Shown here: one piece after another, positions 46,235 through 52,400 of the stretch | Layout of the letters: each line of letters starts with the position of its first letter | Numbering within the stretch: the stretch's first letter is position 1 | Origin: Hormiphora californensis | Taxonomy: Eukaryota; Animalia; Ctenophora | DNA: 64,000 nt | Assembly: GCA_020137815.1 (NCBI GenBank) | Contig: CM035360.1 | Coordinates: 3,348,001 to 3,412,000 of the forward strand | Direction of reading: 5' to 3' | Program-made: the position numbers and the translations under genes | The notes under the pieces: generated by a model | Told to the model about the DNA's origin: nothing | Seen by the model: only the letters and a program-made list of their open reading frames with translations | Database searches by the model: none

Positions 46235-49014
46235 CTAAAAAATGTCATGTGGATCTTGTTCAAGTTCAGCGGTCAAATTCTTCCCAATATCAACGTATAG
46301 AATTCCTGTGTCAGCCTTGTCTTCAATAGCACTAATATTAACTAACCTAAACCCACTAAAATCAACATAATCAGTTAGAGTTTTGTTATCAGCCAGATAC
46401 GCTGAAATGGCACTGTAAGTGTAGGGAGATGCAGGATTAGCGGGGTCAAAGTAGATTAGGGTCTTGGAACGTAGTTCTGTGGGGTATGCGGTTGTAGTAA
46501 GGTTAACCATGGCGTTATTGTACGCGTTCGGGTTGATTTTAACCAGCTCAAAATAACGCTCAGAGTATGCCTGAAGAAGGAAGGGGGTGGAATTAAATAT
46601 TATTAAAATTAATTAAATATTATTAAAAGAGGGGAGGTTATGTAAGGGGGTTAGATTAAAGATGATTAAAAGAGGGGAGGTTATGTAAGGGTGATACAGA
46701 GAAGGGTTGAAGATGTTTCTATTTTCAGTTACTCAATTTCATAGCATAATTAAGCCTTTTTTGTACTTGCTGCACAATTCTAACGAGTGAGTAGTGAGTT
46801 TTCATGCTGAAGTATCAAGCAATAAGTTTAGAGCTAATTGTTTCTAAAAAAACAAACTTACAGAAACATATTTCTTAAAATTCAAGATGGGGTCCACTGC
46901 GATGACAGCTTTAAACCAGTCTGGTTTCCGGGATGATATCTTTAGGGCAGCCCAACCTCCAATACCATGCCCCATTATTGCTACCTTATCTGGGAGGAGA
47001 TGATGGTGTTTAGAAGGACGTTATAAGAATACACTGAGCTGTGTGTCACTATAATAAGTCTTGGTACAATATATATAATTATATGATTAGTAAATTAATT
47101 ACTTACTGTCATTGACATGCCAATAACGGCGGATATCCCAAATACCAGATTCCAACTGATCAATGACCCTCTGAAAAACATTATTAAAATGGTTTGGAGG
47201 GGGTAACCCCTGTGGTCAGGAACCGACCGACACAAGTAAACAACCAATCAGAACTCGTTGTTTAGGTTACGTGACTGGTTATGAGCCAATCAGGGACCAG
47301 TATTTCCTGATTCGGTCGGTTCCTGCCTGTGGTGACTGAACTCGCGTGGTTCAGACTTTAAAACTAGTTAAGTAATTAATTAGTCAATTAGTTAATCTAA
47401 GGAGGTCATTCAAAAACTAACCTCCATCCTCTTGTAGGGGTAGTGGTGGAAGGAAAGATCTCGTCCTGGAGTTCCTTTCAAATCCATTGTAATGGTAACA
47501 CAATCCTTGTCTGTAGCAAGCCACTGTGGCAAACCAAGCTCCCACTTTTTGATAGCCATGTTTCCATCAGGATAGGGGTTTATCTGAGAGATTTGTGTTT
47601 ATTAATTAGTTAATTAATTAGTTAATTAATATGATATGACATGCTGGTTACGAAATAACCCTTTGTGCGCTGGCAAGGGAGGGGTTACTTGGTGAATGCT
47701 GCAGGGTGTATTTGGAATTGGGATTAATATTGAAACAATATACATGCTGATTTATAGGAGATAGAGCTCACTGGCAATTGTATAACTAGAACCGTTTGAT
47801 TAAAGAGCTGTTTAGTAATATGACAGGAACCAACCGAAACAAGTAAACAACCAATCAGAACTCGTTATTTAGGTCAGGTGACTGGTAATCAGCCAATCAG
47901 GGACTAGTACTTCCTGATTCAGTCGGTTCCTGACTTACGATAATGAGTAGGGGATATTTCAAGATGTTCAGGTACATCACGTAGTAGAGGGGGAACACTT
48001 TCCTGCTGGCAAAGTACATCTTACTATTCCGGTCATATTCAGTCTGAAACAAGAATATGTTACTATCAGGGATTAATTATTACGTTACTGTTTACTGGTT
48101 CAGACTCTATCTCTTGTGTAAACACACAATACATTCCCAATACATACATACATGAATGTATAGTATGTACTGACTATACTCTGAATGATACAATGTACAG
48201 TTTGAGATTGTTTATCTTCTAATTACCTCAGTATAGTGAACGTGGGGTAGACGTTTCTGCATCAGCTGTGCCTGTTGACTCGGGATTTTGATATTGTATG
48301 TTCTGGTTATCATCACTGAAAGGGCAAAGAATAGTGGGGTAAAGCAAAGGGGAGAGAGTTGGGAGTGAGTTAGATAGATCATGGGAGAGAGTTGGGAGTG
48401 AATTAGAGAGGTGGTGCTGGGTTGGTGATTTGGGACACATCTAATAGTTTTCGAGACAGTGCTTCAGAGTCTAAAGATACGAATCTGTAACTCCTACCTG
48501 TAAAGATCCCATGAGTTGCTTGCAAATGACCGGACTCGCTTGTAGGGCATCTTGGGTCCCAAGCACAACACCTGATACCTAGTAGAAAGGAATGTTCAAA
48601 TCAAATCAAATCATAAACACGGATGATATTGTGTTGAAACCCCTGCTGGTCGACAACTAGGCAACAGCAGTTGTTAGGCATATCTAAGTTATAAGTTACC
48701 ACTGCTATGCCGACTGCTATCGATTGAAGCGGTTGCTATAGTAACTTACCACTGCCGACTGCTATCTATTGAAGCGGTTGCTATAGTAACTTACCACTGC
48801 CGACTGCTATCTATTGAAGCGGTTGCTATAGTAACTTACCACTGCCGACTGCTATCGATTGAAGCGGTTGCCTACGTCACACCTATCCTCAGGTTCCAAG
48901 CAAGAAATACAGGAGTGAGTGTTATCGATTGCATTGTACATGTACAACATTCGTTTACGGGTAATTGACTGGGTCTTCTTGTTCATATCAAGTTCCTCGG
49001 TTCGAACGTATAAC
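46235..49014 (-). CDS. Alternative 3' cassette B of the DPP4-family gene: 8 exons (49014-48840, 48578-48498, 48302-48227, 48043-47939, 47583-47422, 47170-47107, 46989-46862, 46570-46235) encoding a catalytically dead S9B domain
   Basis: HSCISCLEPEDRC, WYQVLCLGP, KYPLLII, MDLKGTPGRD, KVAIMGHGIGG, FKAVIAVDPI and SAYSERY. All introns are GT-AG and phase-consistent except for one extra base at ~48870. Confidence 0.8.
48695..48870 (-). repeat. 45-bp tandem repeat (~4 copies) duplicating the donor of DPP exon B1
   Basis: Minus-strand unit gcaaccgcttcaat(a/c)gatagcagtcggcagtg|gtaagttactata. Confidence 0.9.
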
Positions 49015-49497: not shown

Positions 49498-52400
49498 TCA
49501 TTTCCCGAATACGAAACACCGTCTCCGTCTCCTCCTTCTCCTCCTCCTACCACAACCCCTCCGTCTATCCCAGAGTGTGTCTCTGAACCATCTGATTTTA
49601 TCAACAAGACGCGGGAAATTGTGTCCCTTCATGGGCTTTACAAACTCCCGGTATTCAATATGTGCCTTATTCAGTTCCCTCGTCACCACCCAATGGTTCA
49701 TAGGAAGCACGTTGTGATCACTCAACCCGTGCATTAGTAGCAAAGTCTTTTTAGGGATTTTAGTGATATTTGGTAGCACGGACGCCCTCTCATACACATC
49801 TTTATTGTATAGTCCGAGGTATCGCTCACTGTATGCTGAGTCGTATAACTTCCAATCAGCCACTGCTGCTGAAGCAACAGCTGATCGAAACAGATTCGGT
49901 GCTTTTTCGAGGACCCGGAGGACAAAATAACCACCGTAAGATGCACCGTAAATCCCCATCCTGTGTTTTTTAACGTACGAAAGTCTCCTGACCCGTCGGG
50001 CAACTTGTATAAAATCCTCAATCTCAACAGTTCCTAGGTTTTTATAGATATCATGGTTTGAGAAGGCTTCATCTCGCCCAGGTGTCCCCCTGCAATCGAC
50101 CATTATCACGATAGTCTGCAGGGCACCAGCAAAGTATTTCGCGTAATGTTGTCCAAACTTTGTGGTAACTTTGCTCTTGGTAGGACCTCCGTACACCTCA
50201 AACAGAACAGAGTATTTCCGGCGAGGATTAAAGTTTGAGGGCTTGAAAAACTTGAGGTAAAACCATCTCCCGTTTATTTTGGTTCGTTTAATTTGAATTG
50301 TAACAGAGTTCTGGGTATGCAACTCGCTATCAGGTTTAGTCCTGATTGTCAGGAACGGCTTGGTATCGCTTGTCTTGAAAAGGAATACCCTGTTTTTTGG
50401 GCCGGGTCCAAGACATGTTACTTTTAGGTACTTCAAATCGGGTGATAGGACAGTCTCTGTTTTTCCTTTCTTGTCTCTTCGGACCCAGGAACAACCAAGG
50501 GGACAAGTAAGGCAGTGTTTGGCGCCGGTTGAGGGAGTTATTCGGTACAAGTCTCGGCAGTAAGGGCCTCGTTCAGTCGAGATGTAGTACCTAGAAGGAG
50601 GTCAGTCAAGGGTCAGTCAATTGTCAGTCAAGGGGGTCAGTCAAGGGTCAGTCAATTGTCGGTCAAGGGGGTCAGTCGATGGGGTCAGTCAACGGGACGA
50701 GTAAGAGGTCACCTGCATGAGCTTTCAGATCTCTAAAATATTCACGTTAGCTCAGTTAAATGTCCCCTCCTTTATCATGTTTATCATTATATTATGTATA
50801 ATATTCACTCGCGTGATATAAAAAAGGTAAAGCCAAGAGAGAGAGAGAGAGAGAGAGAGAGAGAGAGAGAGAGAGAGAGAGAGAGAGAGAGAGAGAGAGA
50901 GAGAGAGAGAGAGAGAGAGAGAGAGAGAGAGAGAGAGAGAGAGAGAGAGAGAGAGAGAGAGCATACTATTTAGAGGCCTTTAAATTATATATTATCATTT
51001 AAAGGTCATCCAGTTAGCTGTTAGAACGTTCTCTCTCTCTCTCTCTCTCTCTCTCTCTCTCTCTCTCTCTCTCTCTCTCTCTTTATATCAGCCACGTGCA
51101 TCTCAGATCCCTCTAAACCGCTCTCTAGATAGGCTGATAAATATAAAACAGTTTATCTCGCTCTAAATGAACTTACACGTGTTGGCGGGTATGATCATTC
51201 CCAATAAGATCAGTTACAGAAAACTCGCCCGTAGTTATAGCTATCTTCTTGTTCGCATCGTTCGTTGTTTCGTATTTGTGGAGATGGGTAAAATTGAACT
51301 GGGGGAGATTGTTTGTTAGGGAGAGAGAGAGGAGAAGAGATAGAGGGAGAGAGAGAGAGACTGAGAGGAGAGAGAGATGAGACGAGATAGAGGAGAGAGA
51401 GGAGAGAGAGAGGAGAGAGAGAGAGAGAGAGGAGAGAAGAGAGAGAGAGAGAGCTCGGACTGGATAGAGAGTAGAGGAGGAGGGGCGAGAGAGAGAGCAT
51501 ACGAGCTATAGACTCTACCTATATATTCGCTTATCTATCTCTCTCTATCTAGACTCTATTTTCCATTTGTATTAATAGATAGAAGATTCCTAGCTCCTGC
51601 ACTAACCTGTTTATCGACCCTTGGCCTTAGCACATAATACTGCTGTGTGGATATCTCAGGCTCAGCGGGGAAGGCCACCGCATCATACCGTGGTAACCAG
51701 CCCTCATAACTTTGTCTCCTCAGCACAATGAGGTCATTGCACGTGGGTGATAGGTTCATGGTACATTCCTCCGTGACAGCCCGGGTTTGGGCCCTGTTCA
51801 TGAACTCCACCAATAGCTTCTTCCTGTGTGATAGAGGATGGTGGTAATGTTATGTTGTGATAGTGGTCATGTTCAGGAACTGTGTCGGAGATGAATCACA
51901 CCGATTTATTATCTCTCTAACCTCCAAATTTGAAGTGACCGTAGAAAAATTCACAAAACCCAAATGGGGTTGGGGTGGTGGTTTACTTCAATTCACATAA
52001 TTGTTGTCTGTATATTGAAAGTTTTTCCATATTTTGGAAGCAGGCCTAACAATTTTTTCAGTTGGTAACAACAACATACGAGTTAGGGAAGGATACGGAT
52101 GTGATGTAGTGTTTGTCCTGTTTTCCAGCTGGGTCCAGGGGCTCATCAGCATTAATCAGCGTCGCCTGGGTAACGTAGTAGAGTTTCAATTTGACCACCG
52201 GGTTACTTTCATCCGTGAATGGGTAGTTGTAGGTCACCGTCTTAGTCGGGTCATCTGCTGCCGGGCTGTGGAGAATCAGAGAGTTAATTATGAGTGGAAC
52301 ATTTTATACAGCTGTAGACATTTACCAGACGCCAGTCCGTCAGATGGACTACTCATATCACTCAATCACTGGGCGGGCTTATCTGGTAGATTCTTCTGAG

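Follow-up and report, generated by a model that had tools for sequence, protein, structure and literature searches.

A DPP4-family gene of the ctenophore Hormiphora californensis with two homologous 3' halves: a transcribed pseudo-enzyme and a predicted serine hydrolase as probable alternative last exon

Introduction

In vertebrates, the active peptidases DPP4 and FAP and the inactive proteins DPP6 and DPP10 are encoded by separate genes, and pseudo-enzymes normally arise as duplicates of whole genes. The mosquito gene GSTD1 joins a shared 5' exon to alternative 3' exons, and its variants are enzymes of differing specificity; we know of no enzyme/pseudo-enzyme pair at that locus. Here we describe a DPP4-family gene of the ctenophore Hormiphora californensis, which lies on the minus strand of a 64,000-nt stretch of DNA (GenBank assembly GCA_020137815.1, contig CM035360.1, positions 3,348,001 to 3,412,000; hereafter the window, whose coordinates are used throughout). 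One membrane anchor and one β-propeller are probably common to two homologous 3' halves, A and B. Half B was found in RNA and encodes a protein with a degenerate catalytic site, half A is predicted to encode a serine hydrolase, and it is likely that the choice of the last exon switches the gene between the two.

DPP4 holds its substrate by a Glu helix and the Arg125 region. Its double-Glu motif (Glu205/206), by which the substrate N-terminus is fixed, has been called essential to exopeptidase activity, and a less acidic site has been linked to the endopeptidase activity of FAP (PMC5807507, whose numbering we follow for Tyr547, Tyr662, Tyr666, Asp663, His740, Glu205/206 and Arg125). DPP10 has a Gly in place of the catalytic Ser, the anchor region of DPP6 and DPP10 binds Kv4, and fly DPP10 is an active enzyme, one gene covering both catalytic and non-catalytic roles (PMC4873792). 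Human UGT1A uses alternative last exons (5a/5b) to make an active enzyme and an inactive form (i1 and i2; PMC10814044), and Anopheles GSTD1 produces several homologous enzyme variants from one gene by splicing (PMC2588609).

Results and Discussion

Overall architecture of the gene

The domain set of the DPP4 family (S9B) is present, namely a type II anchor, a DPPIV_N propeller (PF00930) and a Peptidase_S9 domain (PF00326). In a GT-AG model of the minus strand, translation would start at the ATG at 60611 and proceed through five low-complexity exons, then the anchor exon and then seven exons of the propeller, the last of which ends in the phase-2 donor at 51177; upstream of 51298 (exons 60611 to 51298) this model is derived from sequence only. 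The model is open into A (1022 aa), and into B (1037 aa) after allowing for two extra bases. The shared part consists of the following features.

60611-60541, 60245-60072, 58971-58882, 58671-58502 and 57208-57024, minus strand: five predicted 5' exons, most of the cytosolic tail; the GT-AG model is open into the anchor exon
56563..56686, minus strand: shared exon with the sole type II transmembrane anchor, placed by sequence
56008-55925, 53401-53226, 53148-53017, 52709-52465, 52265-52080 and 51823-51607, minus strand: six shared β-propeller exons (PF00930), with junctions placed by sequence
51177..51298, minus strand: final shared exon with the phase-2 GT donor at 51177, where the contigs of runs X1 and X3 stop matching and continue in exon B1

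The predicted cytosolic tail, which comprises the first 249 aa, would contain 56 Asp, 49 Arg, 25 Tyr and 25 Pro residues with 16 Y[DH]D units. A possible extra cassette at 58272-58111 either splices at 58111 or continues until a stop near 57920; with this second reading the product would be short and anchorless.

Two AG acceptors, at 50590 (A) and 49014 (B), are in frame with the donor at 51177 and enter the same propeller strand (YYISTE in A and LYVRTEE in B). This arrangement had been proposed in an earlier note made from the letters of the window, and its coordinates, the phase-2 exon end and both in-frame acceptors were all confirmed. The note had also held that there is one gene, with no second transmembrane or propeller set; a tblastn search of the 64-kb window with both isoforms likewise found one set and no second anchor or propeller. 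The proteins A and B are 30% identical over 166 residues and their DNA has no similarity beyond chance words of up to 14 nt, which indicates that the duplication of the 3' half is old. A search with one of the shared exons matched 0 of 11 candidates.

Transcription and selection of half B

The second 3' half is divided into eight exons, as follows.

48840..49014, minus strand: exon B1, alternative acceptor, joined from 51177 in X1 and X3; extra base at 48873
48578-48498, 48315-48227, 48043-47939, 47583-47422, 47170-47107 and 46989-46862, minus strand: exons B2-B7, with the GHGIGG elbow in B7 and an extra base at 48285 (B3); introns spliced in RNA contigs
46235..46570, minus strand: exon B8, with which the pseudo-enzyme form ends, its intron spliced in 4/4 runs; the Asp position is Asn and the His is absent

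The RNA evidence consists of filtered, low-depth contigs from five runs, of which X1-X4 were examined over 46100-50830 and X1, X2, X3 and X5 at the shared exon. X1 and X3 belong to one study (P1), and their contigs were guessed to be RNA, yet they are spliced. The junction from 51177 to 49014, a check that the earlier note had named, was found in a 185-nt contig of X1 (44 nt within the shared exon, depth 9.8) and in a 161-nt contig of X3 (36 nt within the shared exon, depth 3.8), that is, in two of the four runs examined at the shared exon. All seven B introns were spliced in RNA contigs; six of them are listed as joints whose ends are GT-AG, and adjoining contig pieces from X1 and X2 bridge the remaining one (47938-47584, between B4 and B5). 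Over the 735 nt that follow the stop of B, no AATAAA was present.

An extra C in B1 at about 48870 had been noted earlier; an extra base is indeed present, but it lies at 48873 and is an A on the coding strand, and a second one was found at 48285. The base at 48873 was missing in X1 RNA and in the Pleurobrachia bachei (P. bachei) model P0033, and the base at 48285 was missing in X1, X2 and X3 RNA and in the same model. Both 1-nt insertions are probably assembly errors, since other genes in the window also change frame (e.g. a cytochrome P450 near 34400), or they may come from a private null allele of the sequenced animal. The stretch 48708-48871 consists of 3.6 copies of a 45-nt unit that reproduces the end of B1, GT donor included; the edge of this array is where the extra base at 48873 is located.

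Of 40 RNA differences listed (42 found), 27 fall in B exons, where 25 are synonymous and 2 non-synonymous; synonymous sites make up 76 of 333 sites (~23%) in B8. Half B is thus under purifying selection and is no decaying copy; a real frameshift with neutral evolution of B, which the earlier note had named as grounds for rejecting its view, was not found in the populations that the RNA runs represent. A search with B8 matched one of 160 candidates, P. bachei sb/3463992 (P0033), which is identical at 323 of 331 residues, and this search recovered no B orthologue beyond it.

Catalytic site and fold of half B

In an alignment of 55 C-terminal halves, the nucleophile Ser of B is replaced by Gly (GHGIGG), the triad Asp by Asn and the oxyanion Tyr by Asn, and the His is lost, which agrees with the earlier reading of B as dead from its elbow and its lost Asp and His motifs. 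The structure model of P0033, which leans on its 84-sequence alignment, revealed a complete hydrolase core with a mean predicted local distance difference test score (pLDDT) of 68.5, with values above 90 in the core and lower ones over the last 50 residues, and it matched both DPP4 and DPP6 over ~380 columns. Judged by alignment and model, B is a pseudo-enzyme in which the fold is kept and the catalytic Ser is replaced.

Half A as an alternative last exon

Two features define the other half.

49498..50590, minus strand: exon A, an intronless 3' half (last propeller blade and α/β-hydrolase) with an Arg-rich tail, supported by alignments and a 168-nt RNA contig
50595..50692, minus strand: tandemly repeated TGACTGACC units that resemble branch points, with period 11/35, a short way upstream of acceptor A

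Exon A is a single open exon of 1093 nt with a KGHNF motif and a stop at 49498. Alignments revealed that it keeps the Ser-Asp-His triad (the Ser and Asp are labelled Ser630 and Asp708), the oxyanion Tyr547, the S1 pair Tyr662/Tyr666 and the animal-type cysteines, and its best solved-structure match is DPP4 (E 1.1e-38). A fold of A computed on a 10-sequence alignment was poor (pLDDT 44.6) and was not used.

A full HMMER search identified four close relatives of A, namely P. bachei P0034 (sb/3470807; 96% identity), the P0035 cluster with Bolinopsis microptera XP_063690483.1 (57%), P0036 (49%) and P0037 (43%), all of which score well above the general DPP4 background (32-43% identity). A is 96-97% identical to two other Pleurobrachia-like copies. 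The relatives form one clade with a support of 100 in the Shimodaira-Hasegawa-like approximate likelihood ratio test (SH-aLRT), keep the Ser, Asp and His and have uninterrupted frames; P0036 and P0037 are taken as ctenophore because of this single, fully supported clade. P0036/P0190 have an intact triad, are acidic (pI 4.9) and carry a Pro/Ala/Val/Glu repeat in the first strand; they may represent a second A-like exon or another lineage. A bacterial origin of A was considered, as the protein search returned mostly bacterial matches (23-38%), and was rejected on the animal-type cysteines and on the position of the clade outside the bacterial group in a 55-row tree; a 26-row tree sets the A clade loosely beside the bacterial group (support 84).

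The first Met of A is residue 164, past the oxyanion Tyr, and conservation over residues 1-163 is about equal to that of the remainder (62/158 vs 80/181 in P0037; 70/156 vs 87/181 in P0036). Because these residues are conserved before the first Met, they must be translated, and an upstream coding exon is needed. Moreover, A starts inside a propeller blade and makes sense only atop a full propeller. The window contains no propeller exons besides those that are shared, and the nearest in-phase donor is at 51177, 586 nt from A. From this layout we infer, with good support, that A would be an alternative last exon of the same gene.

One 168-nt RNA contig of A (50315-50482) was found in the oligo-dT run X2, with a single difference that is synonymous; in the same run, three wholly intronic bins outside the repeat element described below had no depth. 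The junction from 51177 to 50590 was unseen in all five runs, with no depth in the bin 50524-50681 and with X2 and X5 not covering the shared exon; as the contigs are filtered and of low depth, the missing junction does not show that it is absent. No AATAAA was found in the 480-nt gap between the A stop and the B acceptor.

Sequence element at acceptor A

Eight YTRAY motifs lie within 60 nt upstream of acceptor A. The related proteins P0037 and P0195 start with T-D-P-(F/Y)-R-Y-Y-T-S-T-E; the residue before the aromatic pair is Arg in P0037, in P0195 and in the window and is aliphatic in the full-length homologues shown, and an Arg fits an AG/G boundary. Back-translation of this start suggests, post hoc, a TGACNGAYCC just before a YAG/G acceptor at the same position. 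The window has four matches to TGACNGAYCC, vs 0.9 expected over its whole length; all four fall within the tandem array at 50595..50692, at a distance of 20-100 nt upstream of acceptor 50590. Finding the TGACTGAC element and the phase-2 acceptor of A in the same intron of other ctenophores would support an ancient switch.

Predicted activity of form A

The shared propeller has YSAEFF where DPP4 has YEEEIF; the position of Glu205 is Ala, and the motif of two Glu residues, Glu205-Glu206, is absent. In the Arg125 region, D-R-T is found vs R-H-S or R-Y-S in the six homologues shown; an Arg lies one residue away and a register shift is possible, and Arg125 is probably lost from the shared propeller, with Asp at its position. 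The earlier description of A as an active peptidase therefore stands as regards the intact triad and falls short in the propeller, which has Ser-Ala-Glu for Glu-Glu-Glu and is missing the Arg-His-Ser motif. On balance, we expect some hydrolase activity from form A. A classical X-Pro dipeptidyl peptidase appears unlikely from these residues, and a Pro-directed endopeptidase or a weak or slow hydrolase with altered specificity would be most likely, because the propeller is without Glu205 and probably without Arg125. The pI of the A domain is 10.3 vs 7.7 for B, and the domain is basic in four of the five relatives measured.

Proposed mechanism and origin

By default, the shared anchor and propeller would be spliced to B, and the resulting protein of ~1037 aa would be a non-catalytic membrane scaffold or binding protein with its repeat tail in the cytosol. 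A role at the cell surface in which B signals or clusters through this tail is the weakest step of the proposal and may be inferred at most tentatively. Use of the nearer acceptor, the one at 50590 that has the branch-point-like array, would give form A (~1022 aa), whose RNA would be cleaved in the 480-nt gap before 49014. This form would probably be limited to a certain cell type or stage; as a protein it is a predicted serine hydrolase, and its surface would be strongly basic. The likely source of the layout is a duplication of the 3' half early in the ctenophore lineage, which explains the common phase and position of the two acceptors, and A may have become intronless through cDNA-mediated intron loss or retro-insertion.

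The toggle between enzyme and pseudo-enzyme that the earlier note had proposed is supported by RNA and selection on the side of B, and on the side of A we infer it, the junction to 50590 being the one unseen in 5/5 runs. A single gene with one anchor and propeller and two 3' halves is nonetheless the reading to which we give a good probability. We lean only slightly towards the fuller scenario, in which ctenophores would since early times have swapped a whole hydrolase half by last-exon choice, with B as the default, A as a basic serine protease made on demand under conserved branch-point-like control, possible half-active dimers and an independent DPP4 vs DPP6/10 split within one gene.

Alternative explanations

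Several observations weigh against a gene with two last exons. The shared-to-B junction comes from a single study. No full-length A-type ctenophore protein was found among 32 matches of 1596 candidates (637-2000 aa) in what was a weak search, and all 17 of the A-type proteins seen are recorded as stand-alone short products, including a 292-aa Bolinopsis model. A metagenome scan for the layout of the A locus elsewhere gave, among the matches listed, at least 80 loci that were 28-42% identical, none of them above 42%, and none was used. The match of the motif to P0037 was made post hoc and relies on back-translation; it is suggestive. Finally, nested genes, many of them parallel to their host, and leader trans-splicing are common in Hormiphora (PMC8527503).

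These last points, together with the stand-alone database models and the Met at the very start of the exon in P0036, favour the alternative that A is a separate, parallel gene nested in an intron of the pseudo-enzyme gene, either transcribed on its own or trans-spliced at 50590, and encodes a small free hydrolase domain. We consider this unlikely. A product starting at the first Met of A would begin past the oxyanion Tyr, yet the residues before it are conserved; the recorded starts vary among A orthologues; A has no signal peptide though its paired cysteines are kept; and A begins within a propeller blade at the position and phase of B1. Furthermore, the two minus-strand ATG frames of at least 20 aa in the 586-nt intron are microsatellite readings that end in stops.

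Another possibility, quite unlikely in our view and compatible with the splice switch, is true orthology of B to DPP6/DPP10, with B serving as an auxiliary subunit of a potassium channel. The best solved-structure match of P0033 is DPP6 (E 4.2e-16, vs 8.4e-16 for the best DPP4), the change from Ser to Gly is like that in DPP10, and Asp663 is missing as in DPP6/10. In quick trees (55 rows, with approximately unbiased (AU) tests on 26 rows after 29 were dropped), B was a long, unplaced branch; the AU test does not reject its grouping with the DPP10-like P0107 (p 0.53), the set containing only one Ser-less DPP10-like protein, and equally does not reject its grouping with ctenophore A (p 0.48). 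Against a profile of eight NW[KR]G-type anchors, the anchor of this gene, the region that binds Kv4 in DPP6/DPP10, scored -5.7 bits, the lowest of nine segments, vs 51.5 for a held-out member. The ctenophore Shaker-family channels examined were all Kv1, with no Kv4 in Mnemiopsis, in a study of few species whose authors urge caution (PMC11287247). Because of these channels and the missing NW[KR]G signature, a Kv4-subunit role for B appears unlikely. Since fly DPP10 is active, the loss of catalysis in B was probably independent. The name "DPP6/DPP10-like" is valid for B as an analogy only, in that B is dead and has the same fold; the tree cannot place it and the anchor motif is missing.

It is very unlikely that A is conserved in other ctenophores but rarely or never spliced here, the gene making the pseudo-enzyme only. 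The junction contigs of X1 and X3 do pass the branch point into B only; A is, however, open over 1093 nt and 96-97% identical to the two Pleurobrachia-like copies, its sole RNA difference is synonymous and its RNA is present in X2. A last idea, which draws on the two 1-nt insertions in B and on their absence from A and the shared exons, is that the frameshifts are real and B a partial duplicate that has decayed. For the populations behind the RNA runs this is refuted, and its probability is negligible, given RNA and a P. bachei model without either insertion, the 25:2 synonymous bias and other frame-broken genes in the window. The choice of last exon between B and A in one gene thus remains the reading that we prefer.

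Neighbourhood of the gene

A dispersed repeat of ~110 nt occurs in seven copies (490-598, 5641-5748, 47209-47325, 47824-47932, 52756-52864, 56821-56929 and 57428-57539), and the two copies checked for RNA had a very high summed contig depth. Two apparently intronless genes lie on the plus strand, an asparagine synthetase at 29878-31732, split over frames, and the cytochrome P450 at 33164-34676, whose frame change near 34400 is probably an assembly error. A large receptor encoded by a single exon, in which an LDLa module is combined with a seven-transmembrane (7TM) domain (8769-11820, plus strand, frame split near 11420) lies inside a minus-strand gamma-tubulin complex component gene (pieces 5435-5746 and 21702-22109). 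Reverse-transcriptase frames of retroelements were found at 14059-15546 (plus), 23643-25325 (minus) and 43002-44870 (minus). At 35989-36750 (plus), a 254-aa frame resembles a multi-pass membrane receptor and has no Pfam match at E 0.001.

Comparison with known systems

Neither this gene nor, for the DPP4 family, a switch of last exon between enzyme and pseudo-enzyme was found described in the literature searched, subscription journals aside; the isoform could be present in annotation files for ctenophores. What would be new here is such a switch within the DPP4 family; active and dead forms made by last-exon choice are already known elsewhere (UGT1A). One promoter, anchor and propeller appear to serve both an enzyme and its dead homologue, with both halves under selection. 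As a pair matched by nature, the two would allow one to ask what pseudo-enzymes of the DPP4 type do where Kv4 was not found, and to test for convergent loss of catalysis. The locus also points to a blind spot of annotation, as the public models seen hold A and B as separate fragments.

Like vertebrate DPP4 and FAP (S9B), the predicted form A combines a type II anchor, an eight-blade propeller and a hydrolase domain with the triad, the oxyanion Tyr, the S1 Tyr pair and the cysteines. Unlike them, its propeller is without Glu205 and probably without Arg125, its catalytic half is one alternative exon, its tail is 249 aa long and rich in Asp, Arg and Tyr, and the pI of A is 10.3. B resembles DPP6 (DPPX) and DPP10 in having the same fold without the catalytic Ser, with a Gly as in DPP10. 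In contrast, DPP6 and DPP10 are separate genes, and in the DPP10-like P0107 the Glu-Glu helix, the Asp and His at their positions and an anchor of the NW[KR]G type are kept, all of which are lost here. Fly DPP10 is one bifunctional protein, whereas here two isoforms would split the catalytic and non-catalytic roles. Finally, UGT1A i2 is a truncation with a 10-aa tail, whereas B is a full homologous domain of 379 aa, encoded by eight exons, under selection and the form seen in RNA.

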